A DNA stretch of 64,000 bases from an uncultured Acidimicrobiia bacterium (GCA_963836205.1 CAWIIV010000015.1:128001-192000); one strand, 5' to 3'. Counted from the stretch's first letter, positions 4,892 through 27,631 are shown. Translations and numbers: made by a program. The notes: a model not told the origin generated them from the sequence alone.

Positions 4892-6284
4892 TCATCGATT
4901 GAGTGCGTCACGACAGCGAACATTCATTTTGCCAGTCCAGTACATCACGGCGCCCGGGACGACATGAGAGATGAAGACTATTCCTATTACTATCTTCATG
5001 ACGCCAGATATAGATGAAAACAATGGCACAAATAGGGCCACTAGAGAGATTACTACGATCAGAACATACATGGGCAACATGAAATAGTTGTCAACGTTCC
5101 ACCCCACCAGGCCCATTCCCGGAACCACGCGTTTCTGGTAGACCGGCTCGCGAACAAATTCCTCCCAGTCGCGGAGCACTTCCTCCGCGGTGCCCTCAGT
5201 GCCTACATTGCTCCGGAGGATGATAAAATACCCGCGCTTTAGCGTAGCAAAAATGCAACCCCATGCGATCGTGAGATAAGTTACATTGAGTAGGAGGATC
5301 GCCAATGATAGGACAGCTGCAGGGGTAGTTCCGATATCCTTAGCCAACTTGTCAACCCCGTCCAGTGCAGCCAATGCCACGAGACCAAATAGAGCACCGA
5401 TGTACCCAAAGGACACCTGGAATGCCTCATCTTGGAAGTAATTGGCCTCGGCCTTGATAACATTCAGGCCGTCGTCACCCATCGTCGACCTCGGCTTGCG
5501 GATAGGATTGGTCCCATATTTGTCTATCCCGAATAGCAATCGACTGGGGTAGCGTTCCCATCTGTAACAGCCTCCGCCGAAGGGAACCGCGATTACGCGG
5601 ATCCCTGCCCAGAACACTACTTTGAGAGCAAACCAATAGGGGTTTTCGAGTTGGAAGCGGCGCCAGGAGGTCGCTACGATCGGGTCTCTGATGTACGTCA
5701 CTCGACCGATTCGTGCGATTCGCCGAAGAAAGTCAGCGTCCTCAGCAACAGCAAAATCCTCGCGGAACCCGCCGATCGCCTGAAAGGCACTCCGGCGTGC
5801 AATGATCAGCGACCCCAGCCCTTGCGCGATCCCTAGGCGGGCAAGGACCGAGATATAGCTGTCAGCGACGACGTAGCACGTCCGGACAAACCAGGTCCCG
5901 CCTATCGGAGCAAGCCTGTAATGGACCGCGACTACATCCGGCGAAGACAGCATGCGACGTGCAGCGCAGAAAACACCTTCATTTACTGGCGTGTCTGCAT
6001 CCATGAAGGCGATGTACGATCCACTGGAGACTTGAGCGCCGCGATTGCGACCGACGGCTGGGGTTCCACCAGCAACGACTCGGCATCCCATTCGTTCGGC
6101 GATCTCCCGCGTTCGCGTCAGTCGACGCATGGTCCGCTACGACCACTTCCGTTATATGGTCGGTCTTGAGGGAGGCAAATAGGGTCCTTTGTAGCCAGCC
6201 CTCCTCATTCCAGGTCGGGATTACTGCACTGATGGATTCTGTGTCGAGTTTGCACGCGGCGCAACAATGCCGTCGCCTGCACAT
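4892..6284 (-). CDS. Glycosyltransferase family 2 (frameshift at ~6112) in frame with a ~197-aa 4-TM membrane domain (possible separate start at 5482)
   Basis: The N-terminus ISAVIPTWNEE...VVVADHASTD lies in one frame and (A)TREIA..GRNRGA..FMDAD..EDADF in the next. Removing one A at 6112-6113 gives DHASTDATREIA. The hydrophobic C-terminal part is AT-rich relative to the flanks. Start uncertain. Confidence 0.6.
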
Positions 6285-6754
6285 CAGTGCGCCTTTATCG
6301 GTCAAGGTTCGGGCCCGTTCTTCTGAACGGCTGTCTCCGCGGAAGAACCGGAGAGACAGCCAGGATCGAGAGTCACAAAACGCCCACTATTTCAGGCGAG
6401 CCCTCGGGACGTGGCATCGCTCTGCTCCTTGACCCGGCTTCAAGCGTGTCGCCCGGCGGTCAACTGAACGGCGATGTGTCGGCCATCGGATCACGGGGGG
6501 ACCGAGAAGTGCCGATCTCTCTCGGGTGGCCGGGACGACGAGATGTGTTCGAAGGCGGACGATATCGCTCCGGGGCGATCGCTAGCCACCCTGGACAACA
6601 GGCACGTCGGGGTGGTAGTCACCGTCCCCTGCCGCGTGCAGGCGCGGCACGTCGGGCGCGCGCTCCTGGGTCGTGGTCGTTGCCCTGAAGGGATTCCTTG
6701 CTGAATTCCGAGGCGGGTGGTCCGTTTGGGACCATGGTCGGCTACGATCGCACC

Positions 6755-9966: not shown

Positions 9967-10699
9967 ATGGCGCCGCTCCCCCGCCCGTTCGACGACGTTC
10001 TCCAGGAGGTCGGCAGCCGCCTGACCGACGAGGCGTCACGCGACTACCTGCGGTTCCACGCCCGGCGGTACCGGCACCTCCTCGCCGCAGTCGGCCGACG
10101 TCGTGGGCCACCGTCGACCGGAAGCGGTTCGGGTCCTCGACGTGGGCATCGCCTACCAGACGGCCCTCTTCCGGGCCATGTGGCCGGACCTCGTGGTCGA
10201 CACCCTCGGCTTCGGCGACGTGCGGTTCGCGCCCCGACCCACAGAGCGTCACTTCCACGTCGATCTCAACGAGACGGCGGGCGTCGAGGTGGTCGACGGG
10301 GGCCACGATCTCGTCGTCCTGGCCGAGGTCATCGAGCACCTCTACACCGCGGCGCCGACCGTCCTCGCCTTCCTCCGCCGCTTCCTCCGGACGGGCGGCA
10401 CCCTCCTCCTCCAGACGCCGAACGCCGTCGCCCTCCCCCGCCGGCTCAAGATGCTCGCCGGCCGCAATCCCACCGAACCCATCCGTCCCGACCGCTTCGA
10501 CCCCGGCCACTTCCACGAGTACACCGTCGGCGAGCTCACCGCCGCCGCCCGGGCTGCCGGCTTCGACGTCGGCCGCACCGACCTGGCCAACTACTTCGCC
10601 AACGGCGGCGCCGTCCGCCGGCGCTACAACGAGCTGGTCGCGCCCCTGCTCCCGGGCTCGCTCCGGGACGGGATCACCATGGTCCTCACCGCCCGCTAG
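9967..10699 (+). CDS. Class I SAM-dependent methyltransferase (frameshift near 10095-10125)
   Basis: N-terminus MAPLPRPF..YLRFHARRY in one frame; VRVLDVGI, DLVVLAEVIEHL, GGTLLLQTPN and HFHEYT in the next. Confidence 0.7.
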
Positions 10700-11652
10700 C
10701 GCCGGACGTACGGGTAGCGGCCGGCGAAGCCGACCCGGGCGATGCGCAGCGACCGGGCCCCGCCGCCCTTGTAGCCCACCGAGGCCGGCGTCCACCCGTG
10801 GAAGGCCATGCGCAGGTCGCCGTCGTGGTCGACGAAGAACTCCTGGCCGCCGGGGCCGGCCGCGGGCACGCCCGACCGCAGCCAGGGGCGGGCGGTGGTC
10901 GCCTTGGTGAAGGGTCCCGTCACCGAGGCCGACGTGGCGTAGCCCACCGAATACCGCCCCGACTCCCACCAGTTCGCCGAGTAGAAGAGGTAGTACCGGC
11001 CCCGGGCGTGCACCATCGAGGGGGCCTCGATCAGGGGACGCTCCCAGCGCCGGTCGTGGGACAGGAGCGCGGTCGGGCTGCCGGCGAGCGACCCGCCGTC
11101 GGCCGACAGGGGCTGGATCCAGAGGCTGGACGGGTTCTGGAGGGCGTTGTCGTCGCTCTTCCACAGCAGATAGGCGGTGCCGTCCCCGTCGACGAAGGGG
11201 CTGGGATCGATCGAGCCGCCCCGGTCGAGCTGGAACACCAATGGAGCGGTCGAGCTGTCGACGAACGGCCCCTCCGGGCTCGCCGACCGGGCCCACGAGA
11301 TCGCCTGCCGGTCCGACTGCGGCTCCCGGACGACGTAGTAGAGGACGTAGCCACCGGCCCGGGGCAGCACCACGGGCGACCAGGTGCGCCCGGCCCCCGC
11401 CCAGGCAGGCAGGGTGGGCAGGGCGTCGCCCAGGTGCGTCCACGCCACCAGGTCCGACGATCGCATGACCTGCACGTTGTGGCCGCCGGCCTCGGTGGCG
11501 TAGGCGTAGTAGGTCCCGTCCACGTGGAGGACAAAGGGGTCGGCGAAGTCGCCCGGGTGCACCGCCGCCGCCATCGCCCGTCGGCTGCGCCGGGTCAGGC
11601 GCAGGTACCAGGCCCGGAGCGGCTCGCCGACGGTGAGGCCGCGCCGCACCAC
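10696..11652 (-). CDS. Glycoside hydrolase family 43 protein
   Basis: FADPFV, WSPVV, IDPSPF, IEAPSM, YYLFYSAN and GPGG motifs of the GH43 five-bladed propeller. Confidence 0.85.
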   Translation of the reverse strand: MVRRGLTVGEPLRAWYLRLTRRSRRAMAAAVHPGDFADPFVLHVDGTYYAYATEAGGHNVQVMRSSDLVAWTHLGDALPTLPAWAGAGRTWSPVVLPRAGGYVLYYVVREPQSDRQAISWARSASPEGPFVDSSTAPLVFQLDRGGSIDPSPFVDGDGTAYLLWKSDDNALQNPSSLWIQPLSADGGSLAGSPTALLSHDRRWERPLIEAPSMVHARGRYYLFYSANWWESGRYSVGYATSASVTGPFTKATTARPWLRSGVPAAGPGGQEFFVDHDGDLRMAFHGWTPASVGYKGGGARSLRIARVGFAGRYPYVRR

Positions 11653-11925
11653 TCGACCACGACGTCGTCCCGCGGGCGACGGCCCTGCACGTTCGCCATC
11701 ACGCCGGTCGACGACGGGCTACGACTTCTCGAGCGGGATCTGGCAACCCTTCGCCCGGGCACCGCCGGCGACGAGCTCGTAGACGAGGCCGGCCGCGAGG
11801 TCGTGGCGCTCCGACCCCCCGGCCATTGCGTACACGCGTCCGCCGACCAGTTCGTGTCGTCGCTCGCTCCCCTGCTCACCCTCCACGAAGTCCACGAACG
11901 ACGTGATGGCCATGGCCTCCGTCAT
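11649..11925 (-). pseudogene. Truncated Uma2 (DUF820) family endonuclease remnant
   Basis: RHELVGGRVYAMAGGSERHD is the typical Uma2 N-terminus. The ORF stops after 68 aa and the PD...EV core is missing. Confidence 0.65.
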
Positions 11926-11982
11926 CCGCCCATCGTAGGACCGGCGCCGCCTTTGCGGTCCGCCACACCGTGGTGACGGCGC

Positions 11983-13347
11983 CTACGGGACGCGGGTGAA
12001 AGCACCCAGGCCGTGGGTGTCGGCCTCGACCACGATCGCCTCGCCCAGCTTGATGCTCTCGGTGGAGAGGAGGTCGGTGCGCTCGAGCAGCGCCGCCACC
12101 AGCGTGGCCCGGGGGACTGCGGTGGACTCGGTGTGACCGTGGATGCCGGCCCGGGTCGACAGGAGCGACACCGGACGGGTGGCTTGCCCCCACAGGTCGA
12201 GGAGCGACCGGGGAGTCGCGTTGCGGCTCCCGTGGTGACCGACCTTGTAGAGGTCGATGGCGCCCAGCCGCCTCTTGAGCGCCGGGCTCCTCTTGAGACG
12301 GTCGAGGGTGAACTGCCAGTTCTCGATCTGCCCGTCGCCGGGGAAGAGGAGGCGCCGGTCGCCGACCTTCAGCAACAGGATCAGGCTGGTGTTGTTCAGG
12401 GCGTCGTCGAGTGATCGGACGATGCGCTGGAGGGAGTGCATCTGCTGGCTTCGCAGCCGGTCGGCCAGCCAGCGGGCGGGCCCGGCCGGGATCAGCTGTT
12501 CGAGATCGGAGACGCCCTCGGCCAGCGCCTCGGCGGCCGCGGCCTGGTCGCCGGCGGTCTCGCCCACCGGGTCGTCGTCGTCGGGGTCGCCCAGGTCGAG
12601 CGTTCCCAGGGGAAGGCCGGTCGTGACCACTCCCTGGTAGAGCATCCAGTACTCGGGGTCGCGGGCCCGGGCGTTGACGACGCCGGGGAACTGGTCGACC
12701 GTCGGGGGCCCCAGTACCTCCACCCCCAGGCCGGGGACGATCGACTCGATCTTCGACGCCACCCCGGCGTGGAGGTACTCCCCGTCCGTCGCGGCCGACC
12801 ACTTCCTCAGCCGTTCGATCGCCTCCGCGTTCTTGAGCTGGTCCTCGGCCATCCGCCGGACCCGGCCCCGCAGGCTCGACGTGCTGGCGCTGCTGTCGAT
12901 GGCGCCCGCCAGCGCGTGGGCGAAGCCCTCCGCGTCCCCGAGGCTCTTGAGCAGCCCCCGGGATCTGGTGCCGACGAGACCGGTGGCATTGGCCGGGATG
13001 TCGGGCTCCTCGGTCCAGGGCCGCACCACGAGGTCGGGATGCAGCTTCGCCAGGACGTCGGCGGCGGCCTGGTTGCCGAAACCGGACAGATGGTCGCGGT
13101 GGCGGTGGGTGACGATCACCACGTCGAGCTTGCCGTCGCAGTCGGCCGTGATCTGGTTGGCGAGGGCCTCCATGTTGAGCTTCGCCCGAGTCGGAGAGTG
13201 CGTGCTGCCGAAGTCGATCAGCACGTGGCGCTCCTTCCGTCCACCGGGGACGGGAGGCTGGGCGTAGCGGAGGCTGAGCAGGAAGCAGTCGCCGAAGCCG
13301 ACCTGGTACATCCGCACCGTGACGTGCTCGGGAACGATCGAAGGCAT
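11983..13347 (-). CDS. ComEC/Rec2-type metallo-beta-lactamase-fold hydrolase (putative nuclease), cytoplasmic
   Basis: RMYQVGFGDCFLL, LIDFG, THRHRDH (HxHxDH), NNTSLIL, LFPGD, YKVGHHGSRNAT; no TM segment or signal peptide; starts 3 nt after the protease stop. Confidence 0.8.
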   Translation of the reverse strand: MPSIVPEHVTVRMYQVGFGDCFLLSLRYAQPPVPGGRKERHVLIDFGSTHSPTRAKLNMEALANQITADCDGKLDVVIVTHRHRDHLSGFGNQAAADVLAKLHPDLVVRPWTEEPDIPANATGLVGTRSRGLLKSLGDAEGFAHALAGAIDSSASTSSLRGRVRRMAEDQLKNAEAIERLRKWSAATDGEYLHAGVASKIESIVPGLGVEVLGPPTVDQFPGVVNARARDPEYWMLYQGVVTTGLPLGTLDLGDPDDDDPVGETAGDQAAAAEALAEGVSDLEQLIPAGPARWLADRLRSQQMHSLQRIVRSLDDALNNTSLILLLKVGDRRLLFPGDGQIENWQFTLDRLKRSPALKRRLGAIDLYKVGHHGSRNATPRSLLDLWGQATRPVSLLSTRAGIHGHTESTAVPRATLVAALLERTDLLSTESIKLGEAIVVEADTHGLGAFTRVP

Positions 13348-13349
13348 CG

Positions 13350-15110
13350 CTACCACGCCTCCCCGGCCTGTCCGGCCGGCTGGTGGAGGGCGGCGAAGCG
13401 TTGCCCCTTGGCCGCGCCGGTCGAGAACCCGAGCCGGGCGCTGCTGTCGAACACACCGCTGCGGGCCAGGAAGTTGAGCCGATCCGTCTGGCGTCGCGGG
13501 TCCCCCAGGGGCTTTCGGATGTGGTATTTGGCCCGGCCGAACTGATCGAACACGAGTGTCCCCCCGCCGAAGAGCTGCACCTTCGTCTCCGGGCGCAGCA
13601 GCATGCTCAGCTCGACGGCCTCCCCGTCGCCGCCGCTCGCCTTCGCCCACCGCCGGGCCAGCTTCCGGAACTCGGCGACGGTCAAGTCGTGCAGCTGGAC
13701 GTAGTCGGCCACCGCCTCGTTCACCACCAAGCCGTCGGGGCCGACCCGAACCGCGGGGCGCACCGACTCGACGTGGGTGTAGAAGCTGGTGTCGACCCCG
13801 AGCCAGGCGGCGTTCTCCCACACGAACCGGAAGACCTCGTCGACGTCGGTGCGGAGTGCACCGAAGTTCAGGCCCCGGTACGCCGGCGGCGTCGGGAGGG
13901 TGGCCAGGTTCACCACCCGGCCGTCGGTCGGCTGCGCGATCCCGAAGCGCTTGAAGCTCTTGATCAGCGTCTTGCGGTAGGAGCGGACGTCGTCGGGCGC
14001 GACTTCGGCGTCGGCCAGCAGGACGGCGCCCAGGAAGTCCTCGAACTCGAAGTCGACGGGCGGGAGGTAGTCGATCGCCCGCAGGCTCATGCGCAGGAGG
14101 TGCTCGGCCGACTTGGCGCCCTCCTCACCGGCCCGGTCGCGGTCGAGGCGGAGGTCGTGGCCCATCAGGGCGGTCAGGCGGTTGGTCCAGATCCCGACCA
14201 GGGCGTCGAGGACGGCCGCGACCAGGATCTCCCCCCGCAGGTGGGACTCCTCCCACACCCGGTTCGTGCGCCAGTCGGCCGGCAGTTTGAGGATCGCCGA
14301 CTGGCGGAGCCCGCCCCGGGTGCCGTTGAGAGCCCCGCCCATCTGCTCGGCCAGGGACAGGAGCAGGCCGGCCCGGAGCACTGGGGCGCTCACCTTGACC
14401 GCGTCGATCCGTCCGTCCGCCTCGGCGGGGCCGAGCGCCAGGTTCATGACCTCCTTGACCGAGAACACCGACAGGAGGGCGACGATGTCGGCCAGCGCCT
14501 CGTGGAAGGCGGCCTGGTCGGGCAGGCTCGGCTCGAGGAAGCGGTGGCGCAGGCCGTCGAGGACGGCGTGGGCCGTCTCGTGGGCCACCACGTCGTGCGA
14601 CAGGCAGGTGAAGGTGAGCTCCCGGCCGGGGTCGAAGTATCCGAAGAGCACGGCCCGGTCGTCGTCGGAGTAGTAGGCGTTGGCCTCCTTGAAGGCGTGG
14701 GGGACGAGGTAGAGCTGATGGCCGTTGAACGACCACGGCAACCGCCGGCCCAACGCCGACTCGAAGGCGGCCAGCGTGCGGGCGGCGATGGCGTAGACGT
14801 TCTGGGCGTGGAAGGCGGGGTCGGTGAGGATGTCGCGGTTGGTGATGGTGGCGAAACGGTCCTGGTAGACGAGGTTTCCGTGCTCGTCAGCCACGGTGAG
14901 CACGGCCGGCGGGGTGAGCTTGCCGGTGGTGGCGTCGTAGTCGACGGTGAGGAACCGGGCCGACGTCGGCCCCGGATCGAGCCGCTGCACCGGCACCCGC
15001 ACCTTGGCCGTGAGAATGCGCCCGTTGGCCTTCTTGACCCAAGGGTCCTGGGCGACGATGGTCATCTCCACCGTCTGGGGGGCCAAGTCCGACTGGATAA
15101 GCACGCTCAT
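13350..15110 (-). CDS. Thermolysin-like (M4/M36-like gluzincin) zinc metallopeptidase without signal peptide
   Basis: ANAYY, DVVAHETAH (HExxH), AFHEALADI (third ligand), EESHLRG; no signal or propeptide visible; start approximate. Confidence 0.75.
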   Translation of the reverse strand: MSVLIQSDLAPQTVEMTIVAQDPWVKKANGRILTAKVRVPVQRLDPGPTSARFLTVDYDATTGKLTPPAVLTVADEHGNLVYQDRFATITNRDILTDPAFHAQNVYAIAARTLAAFESALGRRLPWSFNGHQLYLVPHAFKEANAYYSDDDRAVLFGYFDPGRELTFTCLSHDVVAHETAHAVLDGLRHRFLEPSLPDQAAFHEALADIVALLSVFSVKEVMNLALGPAEADGRIDAVKVSAPVLRAGLLLSLAEQMGGALNGTRGGLRQSAILKLPADWRTNRVWEESHLRGEILVAAVLDALVGIWTNRLTALMGHDLRLDRDRAGEEGAKSAEHLLRMSLRAIDYLPPVDFEFEDFLGAVLLADAEVAPDDVRSYRKTLIKSFKRFGIAQPTDGRVVNLATLPTPPAYRGLNFGALRTDVDEVFRFVWENAAWLGVDTSFYTHVESVRPAVRVGPDGLVVNEAVADYVQLHDLTVAEFRKLARRWAKASGGDGEAVELSMLLRPETKVQLFGGGTLVFDQFGRAKYHIRKPLGDPRRQTDRLNFLARSGVFDSSARLGFSTGAAKGQRFAALHQPAGQAGEAW

Positions 15111-15197
15111 GCCGTCCACGCTCCCACCATCCGCCGTCGCTCCCGTTTTAGGCCGCGGGACCACGTTCGTCAACCGCCGTCCGTTCGAGGAGGCGCC

Positions 15198-15224
15198 GGT
15201 CACATCGGAGTGAGCCGATCCGTC
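15198..15224 (+). promoter_or_regulatory. ECF41-type promoter upstream of the sigma gene
   Basis: GGTCACA (15198-15204), N16, CGTC (15221-15224); close to the ECF41 consensus TGTCACA-N16-CGTC. Confidence 0.7.
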
Positions 15225-15261
15225 ATAGTCCGTGACGGATCGCGACCGGAGAAGGGTGACG

Positions 15262-16140
15262 ATGGACAACGCCGATTGGCTGACAGACCAGTTCGAGGCG
15301 AGCCGACCGCACCTGCGGGCGGTCGCCTACCGGATGCTCGGCTCCCATGCCGAGGCCGAGGACGCGGTGCAGGAGGCGTGGCTCCGGCTCAACCGCGCCG
15401 ACCGCTCCGGCGTCGAGAACTTGGGCGGCTGGCTGACGACGGTGGTCGCCCGGGTCTGCCTCGACAGCCTGCGCTCCCGCAGGACTCGCCGGGAGGAGCC
15501 GGCCGGCACGCAGCCGGCAGAGGCGACAGCCGGCCTGCGCGCCCCTGACGACGACCCCGAGCACCAGGCCCTCCTAGGTGACTCGGTCGGGTCCGCCCTC
15601 CTCGTCGTGCTCGACCTGCTGGCTCCCGCGGAGCGGGTCGCGTTCGTGCTCCACGACGTGTTCGCGGTGCCGTTCGACGAGATCGCCGACATCGTCGGCC
15701 GCTCACCCGAGGCCGCCCGCCAGCTCGCCAGCCGGGCCCGTCGCCGGGTCCGGGGCACCGACAGCGCTCCCGAGGTCGATCTCGTCCGCCAACGCCAGGT
15801 CGTCGACGCGTTCCTCGCCGCCGCCCGCAGCGGGGACTTCGACGGCCTGGTGGCCCTGCTCGACCCCGATGTCGTCCTCCGCCCCGACGCCGCCGCCCTG
15901 AGCATGGGGTCGTTGCCGGTGACCCACGGTGCGACCGAAGTCGCCGCCGCGCTCGCCGGTGGTGCCAGGGCAGCCCGGGTCGCCCTGCTCGACGGCGTCG
16001 CCGGACTGGTCTGGGCCCCGGGCGGACGGACCCGGAGCGTGATCGCCTTCACGGTGGTCGACGGGAGAATCGTCGAGATCGACGTCACCGCCGATCCCGA
16101 GCGCATCTCCGACATCGACATCGTCCTCGTCACCGACTGA
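15262..16140 (+). CDS. ECF sigma-70 factor with C-terminal SnoaL-like extension (ECF41/SigJ-like)
   Basis: LRAVAYRMLGSHAEAEDAVQEAWLR, ERVAFVLHDVF, RQLASRARR, then AFLAAARSGDFDGLVALLDPDVV. Confidence 0.9.
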   Translation: MDNADWLTDQFEASRPHLRAVAYRMLGSHAEAEDAVQEAWLRLNRADRSGVENLGGWLTTVVARVCLDSLRSRRTRREEPAGTQPAEATAGLRAPDDDPEHQALLGDSVGSALLVVLDLLAPAERVAFVLHDVFAVPFDEIADIVGRSPEAARQLASRARRRVRGTDSAPEVDLVRQRQVVDAFLAAARSGDFDGLVALLDPDVVLRPDAAALSMGSLPVTHGATEVAAALAGGARAARVALLDGVAGLVWAPGGRTRSVIAFTVVDGRIVEIDVTADPERISDIDIVLVTD

Positions 16141-16189: not shown

Positions 16190-16223
16190 AGAGAGGTGAC
16201 GGATACGACCACGAGGAGGACCG

Positions 16224-16583
16224 ATGCAATTCGTGCTGCTCATCTACCAAGGCACCACTCCCCTACCCGGGTCGGACGCGTGGGACGCCCTCCCGGCCGA
16301 CGAGCAGAAGCAGATCTACGCCGACTACGGCGCCCTCAACCACGCACCCGGCGTCACGCCCGGCCTCCCTCTGGGGCTGCCCGAGCAGGCCACCACGGTG
16401 CGGGTGGAGGGCGGCAAGCCGGTCACGGCCGAGGGCCCGTACGTCGGGATGAAGGAAGCCGTCGCTGGCTATTTCGTCCTCGAGGCCGACGACATCGACA
16501 CGGCCATCGAGCTGGCGGCCCAGGTCCCGGCCGCTCGTCTCGGCGGCGCCATCGAGGTCCGTCCGGTCGAGAAGTACTGGTAA
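16224..16583 (+). CDS. YciI (DGPF-domain) family protein
   Basis: MQFVLLIY, ATTVRV, EGPY..KEAVAGYFVLEA, GAIEVRPV; AGGAGG RBS. Confidence 0.9.
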   Translation: MQFVLLIYQGTTPLPGSDAWDALPADEQKQIYADYGALNHAPGVTPGLPLGLPEQATTVRVEGGKPVTAEGPYVGMKEAVAGYFVLEADDIDTAIELAAQVPAARLGGAIEVRPVEKYW

Positions 16584-16804
16584 CACCCCAAGTTGGCGCC
16601 GACGACCACGGCGGCGGGACGCTGGCCGAGGGGTCCCGGTCGCGGGCGGCACGGGCCGGGCGCAGGGGGCACGACGTCCGCTCGGGTAGTCTCGGCGCTC
16701 GGTCGGCGGGGGAGGTCGGCGATGGCGGTCGGAACGGACGGGTACGGCGACAACCGGTTCCCCGGGACCCCACTCGCGAGCCCGGCCCCCACGGGCGCCG
16801 ACCG

Positions 16805-18847
16805 ATGACCAGCGACGGGCGGGAGGCAGTCGAGCTCCGGGTCCACGGCGTCGGAGGAGCCCACGGGGCCAAGATGCTGGGCTACGAGTCGTTGGCGGAC
16901 GACGTCGTCGTCGTAGAGAGGGGCAAGGACACCCGGATCCTCGCCCGCAGTCGCGACTCGAGTGTCGAGAGCTACGACTGGGGCGATCTGACCTCCGGAT
17001 CGGGCTTACGGTCCCTGTGGATCGTCCTCCTGCCGTTCACCCTGATGAACGTCGCCGGCTGGATGCACCCGCCCGTCGACCAGAGCTCGCCGGGCACCGT
17101 GAGGTGGATCCGCAGGCTCGTCCATTTCCTCTCGCTGATGCTCACGGCCATCTACGTGATCACGCTCGGGGTCATCGTGGTCGACCTGATCGGTTGGCAG
17201 TGGTCGCGGCGTTTGGCCCTGCCCGACAACGAAGCCGGCTACCCCGTGGCGCTCGAGTCGACGCTCGGCACCACCCGTTGGGTGTCGACTGCGGCCCTGA
17301 TCGTCGTCGCAGTCCTGATCGGGGGGCTCCGGCTTCTGGCCGGACGGTCGCAGCTGCGGTTCGAGCGGAAGGAGCCCGCAGCCGAGTTGCGCGCGGGCCT
17401 CACCGGGGAGGAACCGTGGGGCGACGACGAACGGCTGACCAGTCGTGGCTTCTTCTTCCACCCCGACGCTGCCTCGCGACTCTTGTTCCGTCATACCGTG
17501 GTCGCGGGACTGAGCTTCGCGGTCGTGGCCGGACTGACCGTCTGGCGGGCCTGGCTCCACCCGAGGAAGCTGGACGAGAGCCTGAAGATCTACGAAGCGC
17601 TCACCCTGCCCACAGTGTTCGTCATCGCCTCGATCTTCGTGCTGGCCTTCCTGTCGCGACGCAGCCCGCGGAGCGCCGGTCACCCGTGGGTCTCGGGCGG
17701 CCCTGCGATCGCGGCCACGCTCGCCTTCGCCGTGCTCAACGCAGTCTCCGCCGGCATTCACGTGCTCCTGATCCTGGTCCTCAACGTCTTGCCGCCGAGG
17801 CCGGAAGCCGCCGAACGCCTACGGGCGGGACCGGAGGTCAACGCGGTCGACCTGTGGGGCGTGGTCTCCATCGTCTTGGTGCTGGCGGGGCTCACGCTCT
17901 ACGTCCTGGCCAGGCATCGTCGGCCGCCAGACGACCTCCCGCCACGGACGACGCCGGTCGACCTCCCGCCCGACGGAGCCGACGAAGCGGTCAGAAAGGC
18001 CGTCGCCAAGAGCCGCTTCATCGCCCTCCTCGCCCGCCGCAGCGGTCGCATGGCGCAGGGCCTGGCGGCGGCGCTGCTGCTCTCGTACACCGTGCTGGTC
18101 CTCTACCGGATCATCAGGGCCGACGGCATCTTCCTCCCCGCTCCCCGCGACCTCACGAGCCCCCTCTACGTCATCGGCTCGGGCGTGCTGCTGCTGGTGG
18201 TCGCCGTGCTCGTGCTCATGGTGCGCCAGTCGTTCGGCGGTGCCCAGACGCTCGCGTCGACCCTGTGGGACGTCCTGACCTTCTGGCCCCGCCGATTCTC
18301 GCCGCTCGCCGTCCGGGCCTACTCGGAACAGGCGATCCCGGAGCTGCAGGGCCGCATCGTCCACCACGTGCGCGGCGACGACCGGCCCCGGGCCCTCGTC
18401 CTGAGCGCCCACAGCCAGGGCTCGATCCTCGGGTTCGCCGCCCTCGACTCCCTTCCCGACGACGACCTCCGCCACGTCGCCTTCGTCACCTACGGATCGC
18501 CGATCTCCACCATCTACACCACCTTCTTCCCCGCCTGCTTCGGGGGCGACGAGGTCGGGCAGCTCCGGTCACGGGTGCCGTCCCCCGGCACGGGGCTGGT
18601 GGGATGGAAGAACTTCTACCGGCAGACCGATCCCATCGGCGGGCCCGCCTTCGGGGAATCCGATCCCGCCGACCAGGAGCTGGCCGACCCCTTCCCCGGC
18701 ACGGCCGCCGACCCGGACCCGTCGACCCCGCCTCGGGAGCGTGACCGGCCACCCTGGACCCAGGTCGCCGGCCACTCCCACTACCACGCCGAACCGGTGC
18801 TCAAGCGCTGGGTCGCCGCGGTCAGGTCGGCGTTGACGCAGGCGTAG
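16805..18847 (+). CDS. Polytopic membrane protein with split alpha/beta-hydrolase (lipase-like) domain
   Basis: N-terminal ELRVHGVGG, many TM segments, C-terminal LWDV.TFWPR, SAHSQG nucleophile elbow, TYGSP, TDPIGG and GHSHY. Confidence 0.75.
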   Translation: MTSDGREAVELRVHGVGGAHGAKMLGYESLADDVVVVERGKDTRILARSRDSSVESYDWGDLTSGSGLRSLWIVLLPFTLMNVAGWMHPPVDQSSPGTVRWIRRLVHFLSLMLTAIYVITLGVIVVDLIGWQWSRRLALPDNEAGYPVALESTLGTTRWVSTAALIVVAVLIGGLRLLAGRSQLRFERKEPAAELRAGLTGEEPWGDDERLTSRGFFFHPDAASRLLFRHTVVAGLSFAVVAGLTVWRAWLHPRKLDESLKIYEALTLPTVFVIASIFVLAFLSRRSPRSAGHPWVSGGPAIAATLAFAVLNAVSAGIHVLLILVLNVLPPRPEAAERLRAGPEVNAVDLWGVVSIVLVLAGLTLYVLARHRRPPDDLPPRTTPVDLPPDGADEAVRKAVAKSRFIALLARRSGRMAQGLAAALLLSYTVLVLYRIIRADGIFLPAPRDLTSPLYVIGSGVLLLVVAVLVLMVRQSFGGAQTLASTLWDVLTFWPRRFSPLAVRAYSEQAIPELQGRIVHHVRGDDRPRALVLSAHSQGSILGFAALDSLPDDDLRHVAFVTYGSPISTIYTTFFPACFGGDEVGQLRSRVPSPGTGLVGWKNFYRQTDPIGGPAFGESDPADQELADPFPGTAADPDPSTPPRERDRPPWTQVAGHSHYHAEPVLKRWVAAVRSALTQA

Positions 18848-18989
18848 GCCGGCGGTGCTACGGTGCGCCGATCACGGAGGCGCGCCAGAGCGGAGCACTC
18901 GGGGATGCCCATGCGCTCGGTCTGTCGTCGGTCTACCGGCAGGTGCCCGTCCTGCCGCCGCTGGCGCGTCCGACCCTACGGGCATCGGT

Positions 18990-19403
18990 TCAGGCCTGCG
19001 GCTGACCGATGTTGACCATCCACGCGACGCCGAACTGATCGATGCACATGCCGAACTCATCGCCCCACATCTGCGTCTCCAAGGGGACCGCGACGCTTCC
19101 GTTGGCCGACAGGTTTTCCCAGTAGCCGCGCAGCTCGTCGGCGTCGTCCCCGCTCAGGCTCACCGCGATGTTGTTGCCGGGCGAATGCTCCATCCCAGGT
19201 GGCGTGTCGGCCCCCATGAGCGTGAAACCGCTCGGGGTTTCCAGCATGCCGTGCATGATGTTGTCGGCACCGGGGCCGTCGCCTCCGCCGTATTCACCGA
19301 AGGTGTTCACATGCAACGTGCCGCCGAAGACGCTCTCGTAGAACTCCAGGGCGGCCCGAGCATTGCCGTCGAAGGTGATGTAGGGATTGAGTCGAGAGCT
19401 CAC
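18990..19403 (-). CDS. VOC/PhnB (glyoxalase-like) family protein
   Basis: LNPYITFDGNARAALEFYESVFGG..IMHG..WGDEFGMCIDQFGVAWMVN; AAGGAGG RBS before GTG 19403. Confidence 0.9.
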   Translation of the reverse strand: MSSRLNPYITFDGNARAALEFYESVFGGTLHVNTFGEYGGGDGPGADNIMHGMLETPSGFTLMGADTPPGMEHSPGNNIAVSLSGDDADELRGYWENLSANGSVAVPLETQMWGDEFGMCIDQFGVAWMVNIGQPQA

Positions 19404-19439
19404 CTGATCCTCCTTGGTCGCGTCCAGCCGGTCCTCAGA

Positions 19440-19466
19440 GACTCCAGCACAACGGCGGACTCTTCG
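19440..19466 (-). promoter_or_regulatory. Putative SigG/ECF56-type promoter CGAAGA-N18-GTC
   Basis: Minus-strand CGAAGA (19466-19461), 18 nt, GTC (19442-19440); same geometry as the site at 9906-9932. Confidence 0.4.
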
Positions 19467-19849
19467 CCCACCGGCCCGGTCGCGCCAGCGACCGGACTGG
19501 TGGCGTCGCGGGTGCCGAGGCGGCCGGTGCAGGCGGCGTGCGGGTCGACTCTGGCGCCAGTGGCGACCCCGGTGTCCTCGGGACGGGTTGCCGGGCCGCG
19601 ATCTGCACCGTGCGCATCGGGATCGGTGAGCGGAAACAACACGTGACCGTGCCGGCTCCCGGAGATCGGTTGGACGAAGGCGCGGCCTTTCGCCGGCCGG
19701 GGTGTGCGGTGGCCGCCGAGTGCCGTCGGCGGTTTCGCGCCGTCGGTGGGGTCCGAACGACCGAGAATGGGATAAACAAGAAGGCGAGTTTCTCGTCCAT
19801 CCGATCGGACGTCCGGAGGTTCGAAGGCAAGGTGTTGGTGACGCGCTGC

Positions 19850-20599
19850 ATGCCACGATTCCGGCTGACGATGCTAATGCTGGCGCTCGTGGCCGCAACG
19901 GCCGCCTGCTCCGAGGTGAAGAACCTCGCCACCGGTGAGTGCAGCGGCGACAAGCCGTTCGTGCTGGTCATGGTCGATGGTTCCTCCACCCAGAACGACC
20001 CTGCGCTGATCGCCGAGCAGGTGGACGTGGTGGAGGCCGTCGCCCGCAGGACGAGCAACGAGTGCGGCCGCCTGCGGGTCGAGCGGTTCCGGGGCTCGGC
20101 CAGCGACGTCGACACCCTCCTCGACCGCGACGTCACCCCTGAGGGGGCCACCGCCGGCAACCGCGACCGCAACCGCGACGACCTTCTGGAAGAGATCCGC
20201 AATGAGGTGGAGCAGCGTATCGCCGGCTCCGCGGCGCAGGGCGGGAGCGATCCAGTGGGCGCCATGGGCCGGGGGGCCCGGCTCCTCGGCCAGGAGGACC
20301 GGGAGCACAAGCAGCTGATCCTGGTCACCGACGGGGTCCAGTCGGCCGAGCCCAACCTGGCCACCGAGGAGCTCACCGCCGCCACCGCCAGCAGCTTCGT
20401 CGACCAGGCCGGCGACCTCCCCGACCTCTCCGGCATCGACCTGGTGGTCACCGGCGTTGGCCGGGTGAGCGGCCCCCAGCCCCCGTCGTCCTACATCAAC
20501 GGGCTGGTGGCCTTCTACGAGGAGGTCTGCGAGCGCTCCGGGGCCGCGTCGTGCCGGGTCGTCGACGCCCTCCTCCTGCCGGGAGGCAGCGGTTCGTGA
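19850..20599 (+). CDS. Lipoprotein with vWA-like domain
   Basis: Lipobox ATAAC after a hydrophobic stretch; VMVDGSST (DxSxS-like MIDAS), GGSD and LILVTDG. Confidence 0.65.
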   Translation: MPRFRLTMLMLALVAATAACSEVKNLATGECSGDKPFVLVMVDGSSTQNDPALIAEQVDVVEAVARRTSNECGRLRVERFRGSASDVDTLLDRDVTPEGATAGNRDRNRDDLLEEIRNEVEQRIAGSAAQGGSDPVGAMGRGARLLGQEDREHKQLILVTDGVQSAEPNLATEELTAATASSFVDQAGDLPDLSGIDLVVTGVGRVSGPQPPSSYINGLVAFYEEVCERSGAASCRVVDALLLPGGSGS

Positions 20600-22452
20600 G
20601 CTCACCTTCCTGGGACTTCCCGTCCCCGTCCGCGAACCCGGGCCTCGACGACGACGACGAGCGCGAGCAGATCGAGGCCCTGGAGCGGGAGCTTCTGGAG
20701 CAGCTCGAACGCGACAACGGGGCGCCGGCGCAGGACCACGTCGAGGCGCTGGACCGGCTGCACCGGGAAGAGCAACAGGAACGGGAGCAGATCGAGGCGC
20801 TGGAACGGGCGCAGGTCGATGCCCTCGAGCGGGAGCACCGGGAAGAGGAACAGGAACGGGAGCAGATCGAGGAGCTGGAGCGGGAGCAGCTGGCCCAGAT
20901 GGCCCAGATGGGCTCGCTCGCCGCGGCCGACCGCGAGTCGGCGGATGTCGAGGCTGCTGGCTTCGATGCTGCTGGCTTCGATGCCGCTCGCTTCGATGCC
21001 GCTCGCTTCGATGCCGCTCGCTTCGATGCCGCGGAGCAGGCCGAGCGCGACGAGCTCGAAGAGCTCGAACGGGAGTCGCTCCGGCAGCTCGAACAACTCG
21101 AGCGCCAGCAGAACTCCTCCGCCGCCGCCGCCGCCGCCGCCCCTCCCCCGCCGCCGCCCGCGCCCCGCCCGAGGACCGACGCGCCGACCCGGGACGCTCC
21201 GGCGACGCCCGTCGTCGAGACCCGACCCGGGCCCGACGCCAAGGCCAGGGCCGCCCAGTTCCTGGCCGAGGCCAACGCCCGCCAGGCGCTGGAGGAGGCG
21301 ACCAGGGGCGGACCGCCCGCGGCGTCGACCGAGCTTCGTGATGCGGACGAGCGCTCCAGGGCGGCCCGAACCATCGTCGAGCACCGCCACCAGAACCTGG
21401 TCGAGGCCAACGCCCTGCTCACCGAAGCGAGAAGGGTCCTGGCGCCGATCGCCTACCGAGGGCTCTCCGACCGCACCTACCTACGCCGCAAGATCATCCT
21501 GGGGATCGGCGAGGCGGTGAGCCTGGCCGTCGCCTTCTCGGCCGCATTCGACGTCGCCCCCCTGGAGGGACTGCTGCTGTCCGGCGCCATCGCCCTCGCC
21601 TTCGTGATCGCCGGCGACCTGGGCGGCGTCCTGCGGATCGTCGCCGAGAGGTCACGGCTGTCGGCGGCCCTGGAGGACGACGCGGTGCACCTTGATCCGA
21701 GGTACCACCACATCCTGTACCACGCCCGACAACCATGGCTCTCCATGATCGGTGGGGGGACCGCCGCCGTCTTCGCCCTGGCCACGGTTTCGGTCGGTGT
21801 GCTCCGAGCCGCCAATCAGGGCAGCGTCGGGCTGGCGGCCGGGCTCGGTTTGCTCACCGTCAGCCTTGCCATCGCCGCCGGGTTGTCGAGCTGGCAACAC
21901 GCCAGCATCGGCTCCGAGATCATCGACCACCTCCAGCGGGAGGAGGAGGCGGCCGCCCGCCGCCTCAAGCGGGCCGCATCCAATCGCGCCCTGCGCCGGC
22001 CCCAGATCATGACCGCGGTGAGCAGCCAGGAGTACGACCTGCCATCGCGCGCACCCGACCTGGATTGGTCGGCGCCCGATGTCGACTGGCAGGCGGCGCC
22101 CACCGCCGAGCTGCCGGCGCTGCGGCCCGAGCGGGGCGGGCGGTCGAGACGGGCGGGGCGGGAGAGGCCGGCGAGGGCGAAGCGGGAACGGGCCTCAGGC
22201 AGCCTGGTGGGAGCGGCCGCGGCCCGAGGCGCCGTCTTCCTGGCCACCCTCCCCGGCAAGCTCCGCCGAGCCGAAGACTCCGGTCCCAGTCCCAGTCCTA
22301 CGAGAGAGTCCAAGAAGGTGTCCAAGAGGGAGTCCAAGATCGAGGACATGTCGGTGTCGGGTGACGGCCCGGGGGCGCTCGGAGAGAGTGCGGGCCCGAT
22401 CGAGGCCGTCGCCTTCCGGCCGCCCATCCAGAGCCCGAAAAAGTTCGGGTGA
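20596..22452 (+). CDS. Membrane protein: acidic coiled-coil repeat N-terminus, ~4 TM helices, basic disordered C-terminus
   Basis: GTGA overlaps at both ends; EREQIEALER and AARFD repeats; four hydrophobic segments. Confidence 0.65.
   Translation: MSSPSWDFPSPSANPGLDDDDEREQIEALERELLEQLERDNGAPAQDHVEALDRLHREEQQEREQIEALERAQVDALEREHREEEQEREQIEELEREQLAQMAQMGSLAAADRESADVEAAGFDAAGFDAARFDAARFDAARFDAAEQAERDELEELERESLRQLEQLERQQNSSAAAAAAAPPPPPPAPRPRTDAPTRDAPATPVVETRPGPDAKARAAQFLAEANARQALEEATRGGPPAASTELRDADERSRAARTIVEHRHQNLVEANALLTEARRVLAPIAYRGLSDRTYLRRKIILGIGEAVSLAVAFSAAFDVAPLEGLLLSGAIALAFVIAGDLGGVLRIVAERSRLSAALEDDAVHLDPRYHHILYHARQPWLSMIGGGTAAVFALATVSVGVLRAANQGSVGLAAGLGLLTVSLAIAAGLSSWQHASIGSEIIDHLQREEEAAARRLKRAASNRALRRPQIMTAVSSQEYDLPSRAPDLDWSAPDVDWQAAPTAELPALRPERGGRSRRAGRERPARAKRERASGSLVGAAAARGAVFLATLPGKLRRAEDSGPSPSPTRESKKVSKRESKIEDMSVSGDGPGALGESAGPIEAVAFRPPIQSPKKFG
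20953..21027 (+). repeat. In-frame 15-bp tandem repeat x5 (AAGFD/AARFD)
   Basis: gctgctggcttcgat x2 then gccgctcgcttcgat x3. Confidence 0.9.
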
Positions 22453-23030
22453 CCCGGCGCCGCCTGGTTCTGATCGCGCTGGCGCTCCTGGCCGCCGGGT
22501 CGGCGTGCGGCGGGTCGTCCTCCGACGAACCCAACGCCTCGGCCACGACCCGGGCCCCGGCGGCCACGCCGACGACCACGGCCGGGGGGACGCCCCGGCC
22601 CGGCATGCCGACGGTCCCCACCGGCGACGAGCGCTCCATCCCCCGGGCCTCCACCGAAGAGGCGGTGATCGAGGGCCGGCCGGCGGTGATCGTGACCCTG
22701 CCCGAGACCGTCCTGTTCGACGTCGGCCAGGCCGTGTTGCGAGCCGACGCCGAGCCGTCGCTCCAGGGGGTGGCCGACCTCGTCGGCGACCACCCCGGCG
22801 CCCGCACCGAGGTGCTCGGGCACACCGACTCGACCGGATCGGCCGACTTCAACCAGTCGCTGTCGGAGCGCCGGGCGGCGGCCGTGTCGGACTGGCTCGC
22901 CGGCCATGGCGTCGACCCCTCCACCCTCACCAAGGTCGGCTACGGCTCCGCTCGACCGGTCGCCGACAACGCCACCGCCGACGGCCGGCAGGCCAACCGC
23001 CGGGTCGAGGTCATCGTCCACCTGGCCTGA
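22449..23030 (+). CDS. OmpA/MotB-family peptidoglycan-binding lipoprotein
   Basis: Lipobox GSAC; VLFDVGQAVL, GHTDSTG, NQSLSERRA, GYG..RPVADN...GRQANRRVE. Confidence 0.88.
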   Translation: MTRRRLVLIALALLAAGSACGGSSSDEPNASATTRAPAATPTTTAGGTPRPGMPTVPTGDERSIPRASTEEAVIEGRPAVIVTLPETVLFDVGQAVLRADAEPSLQGVADLVGDHPGARTEVLGHTDSTGSADFNQSLSERRAAAVSDWLAGHGVDPSTLTKVGYGSARPVADNATADGRQANRRVEVIVHLA

Positions 23031-27553: not shown

Positions 27554-27631
27554 TCAGTTCCGGGCCCGCATCAGTTCCGGGCCCGCATCAGTTCCGGGCC
27601 CGCATCAGTTCCGGGCCCGCATCAGTTCCGG
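27554..27631. repeat. Perfect 17-bp tandem repeat x4.6 at the 3' end of der
   Basis: tcagttccgggcccgca at 27554, 27571, 27588 and 27605, plus a partial copy at 27622 containing the der stop codon. Confidence 0.95.

Follow-up and report, generated by a model that had tools for sequence, protein, structure and literature searches.

A gluzincin protease and a ComEC-type metallo-beta-lactamase-fold hydrolase form a widely conserved two-gene module and a candidate protease-gated pro-nuclease system

The stretch of DNA analysed here (64,000 nt from an uncultured Acidimicrobiia bacterium, GCA_963836205.1 CAWIIV010000015.1:128001-192000; "the window" means this entire stretch throughout) encodes a zinc metalloprotease of the gluzincin type followed immediately by a hydrolase of the metallo-beta-lactamase (MBL) fold. 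The DNA around the pair is GC-rich (~0.70-0.75), for which reason the window contains many spurious open reading frames (ORFs), and GC content at third codon positions (GC3) picks out two genuine genes in the region, both on the minus strand, as are all features of the pair described below. The first (13350..15110), identified by its ORF, a GC3 of 0.94, Pfam, an AlphaFold2 (AF2) model and Foldseek, encodes the protease partner, a 586-residue protein that we call the gluzincin. The second (11983..13347), identified by its ORF, Pfam, NCBIfam, PADLOC, AF2 and Foldseek, encodes a 454-residue soluble ComEC-type MBL-fold hydrolase, a candidate pro-nuclease, that we call the MBL. An initial annotation of this DNA had delimited both genes correctly but had set them 3 nt apart: the protease stop codon occupies 13350-13352 and the ATG of the MBL gene 13345-13347, leaving a gap of 2 nt (junction TAG-CG-ATG). 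Reading of the sequence also reveals a GGAGG Shine-Dalgarno (SD) motif for the MBL gene (13358..13362), located 10 nt 5' of its ATG and within the last codons of the protease gene (G-E-A-W-stop). The 2-nt gap and the embedded GGAGG together suggest translational coupling, and the two genes are probably coupled in this way. No promoter or terminator was detected in a scan of 11500-15400.

Motif mapping and conservation among homologues locate in the gluzincin the zinc-binding and catalytic HETAH motif (residues 177-181; 14568..14582) and a HEALAD motif (residues 203-208; 14487..14504) that provides the third zinc ligand, Glu204, and Asp208, while mapping and a homologue alignment locate an ESH motif (residues 288-290; 14241..14249). 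All three were found intact where they had first been reported. H177, E178 and H181 are invariant among 44 aligned sequences, the HExxH...HExxxD arrangement is intact in 120/120 near and 120/120 longer homologues, and the invariant His290 of ESH is presumably the candidate counterpart of the transition-state histidine of thermolysin. Similarity to known families is faint at the sequence level: the Pfam match to Peptidase_M4 (PF01447; residues 106-184) is marginal, with 23.4 bits vs a cut-off of 22.4, the same scan gives no match to PF02868 (Peptidase_M4_C), and a sequence search of the PDB returned chance-level matches only (E 0.33 and above). The AF2 model is confident (predicted local distance difference test, pLDDT, 88.9; predicted template modelling score, pTM, 0.90), and its 27 best Foldseek matches are all M4 enzymes or M36 fungalysins (E 5e-5 to 4e-3; TM-score normalised to target, TMt, 0.44-0.63; probability 1.00), the M4 enzymes being thermolysin, LasB, aureolysin, vibriolysin, ProA and protealysin. 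Furthermore, a crude hydropathy test finds an N-terminal hydrophobic stretch in 0/120 homologues and the Pfam scan finds no propeptide domain, in agreement with the earlier claim that the protein has neither signal peptide nor propeptide. Judged by sequence and model, the gluzincin is a cytoplasmic enzyme of predicted thermolysin fold and not a canonical secreted M4 enzyme.

Beyond the catalytic core, the AF2 model shows a C-terminal domain built of well-folded beta-hairpin and helix units (~residues 410-586; 13353..13883), a candidate sensor or docking domain. It is kept across the family, including relatives fused to S8 subtilisin domains, one of which, from M. extorquens, aligns up to residue 577. 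Foldseek yields no PDB match for this domain beyond the thermolysin core, and its best score in the ESM Atlas is only 0.78, too low to be of use; for the whole gluzincin, the ESM Atlas returns unnamed clusters, clusters auto-named 'serine protease' and weak M36/M4 leads.

The MBL carries the complete set of HxHxDH, GD and HHGS motifs that had been attributed to it. The metal-binding motif HRHRDH (residues 81-86; 13090..13107) is invariant in 42 sequences. Alignment and motif mapping identify LNNTS (residues 317-321; 12385..12399), whose invariant Asn318 is a candidate metal ligand and, by comparison with the phosphorylcholine esterase Pce, is taken by us to occupy the position of MBL motif 3. 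In the alignment, motifs 4 and 5 extend from PGDG (residues 336-339, with Asp338 as bridging ligand) through HHGS (residues 371-374, with His371 and His372), at 12226..12342. Both HxHxDH and HHG[ST] are intact in 120/120 homologues. The Pfam match to Lactamase_B is weak (24.1 bits) and the PDB sequence search marginal, its best match being ComEC (9vc6, E 0.075), and the AF2 model (pLDDT 85.3) finds its best structural match in the MBL domain of ComEC (9ic4, E 5.4e-10, TMt 0.75). As proposed previously, the membrane domain of ComEC is missing: the protein has only 454 residues, and the crude hydropathy test finds an N-terminal hydrophobic stretch in 0/120 and a transmembrane-like segment in 0/120 homologues.

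Sequence models also link the MBL to proteins of immune systems. PADLOC gives sub-threshold matches to the MBL-type LmuA (62.4 bits), PDC-M48B (40), Avs1a (36) and RTasMBL (34), and NCBIfam gives weak matches to Avs1a (50.9 bits), 6A-MBL (32) and ComEC (22.4; TIGR00361, cut-off 190). By these profile matches, the window MBL is a distant relative of defence MBLs. 6A-MBL is named as a jumbo-phage defence, with no mention of a protease in the available portion of the source (10.1101/2025.09.30.679545).

A long insertion distinguishes the MBL: ~230 residues separate H86 from the invariant Asn318, that is, motifs 2 and 3. AF2 confidence drops inside it (pLDDT <50 at residues 228-232 and 254-265), and AF2 together with the column statistics of a 189-sequence alignment delimits a variable, low-confidence loop at residues 243-287 (12487..12621), which we consider a candidate gating loop. 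This loop holds 12 acidic and no basic residues, and motif mapping places in it the acidic segment DLGDPDDDDPVGETAGD (residues 251-267; 12547-12597). The initial annotation had seen in this segment an autoinhibitory DNA mimic. The acidic insert is indeed present at the place indicated, but its role as a conserved DNA mimic was rejected: residues 258-279 fall in columns with 75-95% gaps among the 189 sequences, and the surrounding loop is variable. The acidic form of the loop is limited to a small actinobacterial subclade, and elsewhere the loop is short and non-acidic. The alignment also shows that the variable loop has conserved flanks, D-P-E-[YF]-W (230-234) and P-G-P-x-R-W-L (288-294). A second candidate gating or recognition loop, formed by W-T-E-[DE]-P (111-115) and the residues that follow (~residues 111-128; 12964..13017), comes right after a core strand and is modelled with a pLDDT of ~70-73. 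Judging from conservation, these three motifs are better candidates for recognition or cut sites than the acidic stretch. No conserved Ile cut sites were identifiable in the window MBL.

Conservation of the pair was surveyed in a collection holding one genome per species (185,579 species genomes), in which at least 599 matches to the search pattern were found, at least 550 of them encoding a relative of the gluzincin; the best 80 loci were kept. In 79/80 of these, tblastn shows the protease gene to be followed immediately, and on the same strand, by an MBL homologue, and the 80th (L078) lies on a contig that ends 10 nt past the protease match, so that the pair is conserved in 79/79 testable loci. 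These loci span at least 10 phyla, among them Actinomycetota, Chloroflexota, Acidobacteriota, Pseudomonadota, Verrucomicrobiota, Planctomycetota, Gemmatimonadota and Nitrospinota. Furthermore, two proteins (P0242, 1272 aa; P0243, 1271 aa) join both partners in a single chain and in the same order as the genes, the gluzincin motif being found at residue 408 and HxHxDH further on, at residues 909-917, and the pairwise distances of gluzincins and MBLs co-vary (Mantel r = 0.93 for 70 rows; 0/999 permutations as high). The co-occurrence survey that had been suggested as a check thus demonstrates that the gluzincin and the MBL form a real, widely conserved two-gene module.

The family is large. Among the 8000 candidates scored for each protein, homologues form 2343 (gluzincin) and 4764 (MBL) clusters at 90% identity, and a gluzincin profile search of 1.84 billion representatives (50% identity clusters) gave 4703 matches at E<=1e-3, a number that may take in ordinary M4 enzymes, 3353 at 1e-10 and 1338 at 1e-30. 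A quick tree separates an Actinomycetota/Chloroflexota clade (28 rows, including the window) from a Gram-negative clade (42 rows). It requires 14 changes of phylum vs a minimum of 9, which indicates that inheritance of the pair is mostly vertical within phyla, with some transfers.

A side observation concerns the C-terminal end of the gluzincin. Its last residues, G-E-x-W (codons at 13353-13364), are invariant or nearly so in the actinobacterial/Chloroflexota clade, and their codons hold the GGAGG ribosome-binding site of the MBL gene. Conservation at the protein level may here be in part a nucleotide-level constraint arising from translational coupling. Gram-negative relatives have a longer intergenic gap, and in them the C-terminal tail is not conserved.

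In about a quarter of loci the pair is accompanied by another hydrolase. Clustering of flanking ORFs and naming by Pfam show that a co-oriented hydrolase gene adjoins it in 24/80 loci: a patatin-like phospholipase in 12 (10 upstream, 2 downstream), a Tle1-like DUF2235 protein in 6, a weakly astacin-like metzincin in 5 and a caspase in 1. Three of the Tle1-like proteins were scanned and match Pfam T6SS_Tle1-like_cat (E 3.5e-75 in L022, 1.8e-67, and 2.1e-70 in L069). GC3-filtered gene picking had missed real upstream Tle1-like genes (L013, L014, L019, L022, L023), of which two were scanned separately and the remainder were named by cluster membership only. A PLD gene is found in addition in plasmid loci. 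Representatives of the third-gene families give nothing better than E 0.1 against the window (tblastn), which is hence the bare two-gene form of the module. Domain fusions occur as well: the 120 longer gluzincin homologues listed include 102 fusions to an N-terminal S8 subtilisin, a single fusion to TIR and several proteins that begin with a lipase-like region. In the TIR fusion, a metagenomic protein (P0241, 1043 aa), a TIR_2 domain (300-419) precedes a gluzincin module with 50% identity to the window protein across 97% of its length. In two Acidobacteriota loci (L045 and L064), a full-length serpin (Pfam E 5e-122 and 5e-123; ~5170-6370) is encoded two genes upstream of an astacin-like gene-gluzincin-MBL array, and such a protease inhibitor next to the module may be regulatory.

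The initial annotation had called for a test of enrichment in defence islands, and the neighbourhoods differ between replicons: the plasmid loci inspected mostly lie beside defence genes, but chromosomal loci have mostly ordinary neighbours. A gluzincin relative is encoded in 114/72,556 plasmid records. Nine plasmid regions were inspected and the gluzincin is followed by an MBL-sized gene in 9/9, its identity being established by hidden Markov model or BLASTP in 6 and by size and position only in 3. Annotation places defence-type genes at <=7 kb in 8/9 of these regions, and PADLOC confirmed such neighbours in 6/9. Besides the two loci described below, the neighbours identified by PADLOC include a CBASS cyclase (5.9e-146), PtuA/PtuB-like (Septu-like) proteins, a ThsA-like SIR2 protein and a GajB-like helicase. 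Relatives were found in 2/50,697 phage records, which weighs neither way. On chromosomes, 235 ORFs within 2.5 kb of the pair were scanned in 68 loci, 12 near-duplicate loci, mostly from Microbacterium, being left out. Conflict-type or mobile neighbours occur in about a dozen of these 68 non-redundant loci (CHAT, caspase, NERD, PLD, an IrrE-UvrD-PD-(D/E)XK protein, a cyclase-STAND protein, transposases, a recombinase and serpins), and no secretion-system gene was found among the 235 ORFs.

Two plasmid loci have an arrangement of their own. On plasmid pAtH25_79a of Agrobacterium tumefaciens (L085, 5746-14018), a patatin-gluzincin-MBL array is followed after 115 nt, on the same strand, by a complete Hachiman system (PADLOC: HamA 3.9e-145, HamB 1292 bits); here a Hachiman system could have taken the metalloprotease-nuclease pair into its service, in parallel to the published HamMAB. 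On a plasmid of Hymenobacter monticola (L086, 4466-10258), an LmuB-like SMC-type ATPase (PADLOC 2.2e-20) is encoded directly upstream of the pair, with gaps of 25 nt and 13 nt. This locus is a Lamassu-like operon with the gluzincin-MBL pair in the position of LmuA.

Other features of the window lie outside the conserved module. A decayed Uma2 nuclease had been reported directly downstream of the pair, and a remnant is plausible there: Pfam aligns 41 residues (11722..11928, minus strand), flanked by the MBL gene on one side and a GH43 gene (10696-11652) on the other, to positions 4-44 of the 172 of the model, that is, to the N-terminal part of Uma2. The match is nevertheless weak (E 0.005, 16.8 bits vs a cut-off of 27), and the fragment is not a conserved neighbour in other loci. 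A 1492-aa ORF (126-4604, minus strand) occupies the lowest-GC part of the window (0.59-0.64 vs 0.70-0.75) and has weak AAA_16, NACHT and nSTAND-type P-loop matches, all at or below cut-offs; it is unlinked to the pair and may represent a conflict gene of STAND-like type gained by horizontal transfer. A second STAND-like ORF (23304-25199, minus strand; 631 aa) matches AAA_22 (29.5 bits) and nSTAND1 (23.4 bits). A link between the pair and these two ORFs was rejected: they lie far from it, with unrelated genes in between, and other loci do not conserve them. Long ORFs on the plus strand (16196-22452; candidates of 883, 353 and 633 aa) match no Pfam, NCBIfam or PADLOC model and are followed by an OmpA-family gene (22449-23030). 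Finally, a 902-aa frame (27622-30330, minus strand) joins PDZ, Radical_SAM_2 and DUF512 domains (5-287) to a complete Der/EngA double GTPase (460-899), and represents a genuine fusion or else two neighbouring genes merged by the longest-ORF call.

The experiments against which the pair has to be read were published recently and are cited here from the available portions of two reports. Tuck et al. 2025 (Science; PMC12799240) describe HamM and Avs1a, the MBLs of Hachiman and AVAST systems, as gated pro-nucleases whose active site is blocked by two disordered insertions until a trypsin-like protease cuts the protein and turns it into an active DNase; canu (caspase-nuclease) loci behave alike, CanC being activated by a caspase (PMC12799240). 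Evans et al. 2025 (bioRxiv; PMC12642450) describe a double cleavage that produces a Zn-dependent double-stranded DNA nuclease, sort the MBLs into three clades according to whether the partner is trypsin-like, caspase-like or S8 subtilisin-like, and report that alpha/beta-hydrolases too can be protease-activated zymogens (PMC12642450). The comparison with Avs1 made at the outset is thereby borne out for those systems, where such MBLs are pro-nucleases unlocked by the partner protease (PMC12799240, PMC12642450), and the idea of a zymogen that came with it is, by analogy, well founded and, for the pair studied here, unproven.

By the same analogy, the pair may work as follows. A single transcript with coupled translation would give rise to both proteins in the cytoplasm, as the 2-nt gap and the embedded SD motif suggest, and the MBL, to judge from fold and motifs, would be a ComEC-like di-metal phosphodiesterase kept inactive by the ~230-residue insertion between its metal-binding motifs. 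Upon infection or stress a signal would render the gluzincin active, whether the gluzincin is itself the sensor through its C-terminal domain or is driven by a neighbouring sensor where one is present, and the MBL would then be cut in one or two flexible loops (~111-128 and 228-290). Once cut, the MBL would degrade DNA non-specifically and thereby kill or arrest the cell. Where a third gene or a fused domain is present (patatin, Tle1-like, PLD, astacin-like, caspase, S8, TIR), it might act as a further effector or as another tier of the cascade. We consider it likely that the gluzincin and the MBL are functionally coupled as a conflict module. That this module is of the anti-phage or anti-plasmid type and represents a metalloprotease version of the protease-gated MBL pro-nucleases is, on analogy, an evenly balanced proposition, and activation of the MBL through cleavage by the gluzincin could equally well turn out either way.

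A complex of the two proteins was also predicted. The interaction prediction score from aligned errors (ipSAE) of the gluzincin with the MBL is 0.44 (runs 0.47, 0.40, 0.44) vs 0.02 for the best control, the runs share at least 63% of contacts, and the partners are modelled with a pLDDT of at least 74. The mark applied is reached by 116/157 solved complexes and 2/215 mismatched pairs, counts that are approximate here as our own alignments were used, and the band up to an ipSAE of 0.60 contains only 18 of the 157 solved complexes and both of the passing mismatches. The prediction hence lends weak support to a contact between the two proteins.

This weakness is one of several points that count against a conflict module with a protease-gated nuclease. 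Neither the window gluzincin nor four plasmid relatives match any NCBIfam or PADLOC model, so that the gluzincin is not a named defence protein in either resource, and no sensor domain was recognised in the window gluzincin with Pfam, NCBIfam or PADLOC. The MBL is far under the NCBIfam cut-off for Avs1a (50.9 vs 420 bits), and its second-best structural match is Pce, which leaves room for a substrate other than DNA. Most chromosomal neighbours belong to metabolism or transport, and those in the window are just as ordinary (GH43, a methyltransferase, RibD_C, DinB and a divergent upstream extracytoplasmic function (ECF) sigma factor). Lastly, the GC3 of the pair is host-like, and a co-variation of r = 0.93 can be explained by linkage alone.

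A stronger form of the proposal would make of the gluzincin a minimal, sensor-less immune hub, a master protease that detects infection via its C-terminal domain and licenses the MBL everywhere and, in subsets of the family, patatin, Tle1-like or PLD lipases, astacin-like or caspase proteases, S8 and TIR domains. We hold this only tentatively and think it rather unlikely. If it were true, the activator in the 'subtilisin-associated' MBL clade would be an overlooked gluzincin module and not the subtilisin.

The best-surviving alternative, although unlikely, is that the two proteins are parallel effectors, the protease directed against phage or host proteins and the MBL against nucleic acid, co-regulated without either being the substrate of the other and activated from elsewhere (by transcription, a small molecule or an unlinked sensor). 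The further effector-like hydrolases found in the third slot, together with the S8, TIR and lipase-like fusions, do make the family look like an effector bundle, and the lack of a recognisable sensor and the weak complex prediction point the same way. Against this, the order and adjacency of gluzincin and MBL are invariant while all else varies, and single-chain fusions join exactly these two. Moreover, the insertion of the MBL, with its disordered loops, occupies the region in which its relatives have their gating loops, and in those relatives that have been studied the MBL is a protease substrate, according to the available portions of PMC12799240 and PMC12642450.

An inverse logic resembling toxin-antitoxin systems is quite improbable. 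Here the MBL would be constitutively toxic and held low through degradation by the gluzincin, or the reverse, until phage interference unleashes the nuclease. Tightly coupled translation led by the protease gene is what one typically finds in antitoxin-toxin operons, and in most loci the pair stands alone. On the other hand, a 586-aa enzyme with a conserved extra domain would be an atypical antitoxin, fusion in one chain fits poorly with constant degradation, and the characterised relatives work in the opposite way, as far as described in the available portion of PMC12799240.

The chances of a housekeeping or stress role are similarly slim. One could imagine that the pair serves in the cytoplasm to turn over peptides and a phosphodiester substrate, be it nucleic acid or a phosphocholine-type head group, and the metabolic and transport genes that dominate the chromosomal neighbourhoods, a synteny that is stable within Microbacterium, a largely phylum-coherent tree (14 vs a minimum of 9 changes), host-like codon usage and the rank of Pce among the fold matches would all suit it. 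Such a role would nonetheless have to account for a sparse distribution (at least 550 matching stretches in 185,579 species genomes) at positions that differ between lineages, for the presence of the pair on conjugative plasmids by Hachiman, CBASS, Septu-like and SIR2 genes, for TIR and S8 fusions and for the kinship of the MBL with defence MBLs. Finally, a secreted or contact-delivered toxin cassette is hardly credible: Tle1-like and patatin families are known as type VI lipase effectors, and neighbours of the pair do match Pfam T6SS_Tle1-like_cat (3.5e-75 in L022, 2.1e-70 in L069) and Patatin, but N-terminal hydrophobic segments occur in 0/120 homologues of one protein and 0/120 of the other, the 235 ORFs scanned around the pair include no secretion-system gene, the pair is common in Actinomycetota, and no conserved immunity-like small gene stands alongside.

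Should the pair prove to be a protease-gated pro-nuclease module, it would extend an immune logic that has been recognised as widespread in bacteria since late 2025, the licensing of death effectors by proteases, which so far involves serine (trypsin-like, S8) and cysteine (caspase-like) enzymes. The gluzincin-MBL family would add a fourth catalytic class, the thermolysin-type zinc proteases. Our literature search, which covered text but left figure labels (Tuck Fig. 4A, S2) outside, found no paper that couples a metalloprotease to a pro-nuclease, and neither the main text of PMC12799240, nor one supplement to it, nor the main text of PMC12642450 uses the terms metalloprotease, metallopeptidase, zincin or thermolysin, figures not being covered. 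The family is large and found in soil and water phyla that phage-defence work has covered little (Actinomycetota, Acidobacteriota, Chloroflexota, Verrucomicrobiota), and its commonest form consists of two genes only, with no recognisable sensor. An invariant core with a swappable hydrolase slot makes a clean system in which to study how one protease may gate several effectors, the S8-fused relatives allow one to re-examine which protease acts, and a defined gene pair with candidate cut loops and active-site mutants is practical starting material for tests.

Comparison with known enzymes and systems places both proteins more precisely. With M4 and M36 peptidases the gluzincin shares HExxH, a glutamate ~20 residues downstream and a two-lobed thermolysin fold; it differs from them in being cytoplasmic, in having no signal peptide, no FTP/PepSY propeptide and no Peptidase_M4_C match, in its ~175 extra C-terminal residues and in an identity of only 9-17% to solved enzymes. 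The MBL resembles the MBL domain of ComEC/Rec2, its best match in structure (9ic4) and in PDB sequence (9vc6), but has neither the competence membrane domain nor the OB-fold domain, has no competence genes nearby and carries ~170 extra residues between metal motifs (the ComEC domain has 266 residues).

The trypsin-MBL systems (HamMAB, Avs1/Avs2/Avs4, Lamassu and DRT variants; PMC12799240, PMC12642450) share with the pair, in the portions of these reports available, a soluble ComEC-like MBL with intact metal motifs, a long MBL insertion with disordered loops, a neighbouring and co-evolving protease gene and a location in defence islands, and the window MBL matches the PADLOC models of their MBLs (MBL-type LmuA, Avs1a, RTasMBL). 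The differences concern the protease, which in the window is a predicted thermolysin-fold zinc enzyme and not a serine protease, is encoded before the MBL, whereas the MBL gene lies upstream in those systems, and carries none of the known sensors (STAND, HamA, LmuA, RT) as a fusion. No infection sensor adjoins the pair in the window; LmuB-like or HamAB proteins are encoded next door only in some plasmid loci. From Avs1 (AVAST type 1) in particular, the window is set apart by the score of its MBL (50.9 bits vs a cut-off of 420 for Avs1a) and by the lack of a protease-STAND NTPase gene: the nearest STAND-like ORF (126-4604) is 7.4 kb from the pair, and no STAND gene recurs beside the pair in the 80 loci. 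Canu (CanABC; PMC12799240), as described in the available portion of that report, is closer in layout, with a stand-alone protease gene followed by an MBL gene in variable loci with extra genes, and in the proposed logic by which the protease licenses the nuclease. Its protease, however, has a caspase/paracaspase fold with an Ig-like domain, and works with a CanB partner, while the window family has a gluzincin with a C-terminal domain and mostly no third gene.

The nearest described group is probably Clade 3, the S8-adjacent MBLs (PMC12642450). The window protein has no S8 domain, and the available text of PMC12642450 names only the subtilisin and no gluzincin module. The S8 proteins that we find encoded beside related MBLs end in a module with homology to the entire window protease: the M. 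extorquens S8 fusion aligns with residues 42-577 of the gluzincin (31% identity, E 2e-62), and the MBL partners of S8 fusions are homologous to the window MBL (E 1e-19 in M. extorquens, and 2e-28). Since the S8 proteins carry the whole gluzincin module and have homologous MBL partners, the published S8 clade is probably, on these sequence similarities, the sister of the window family, and the gluzincin may be the constant partner across both.

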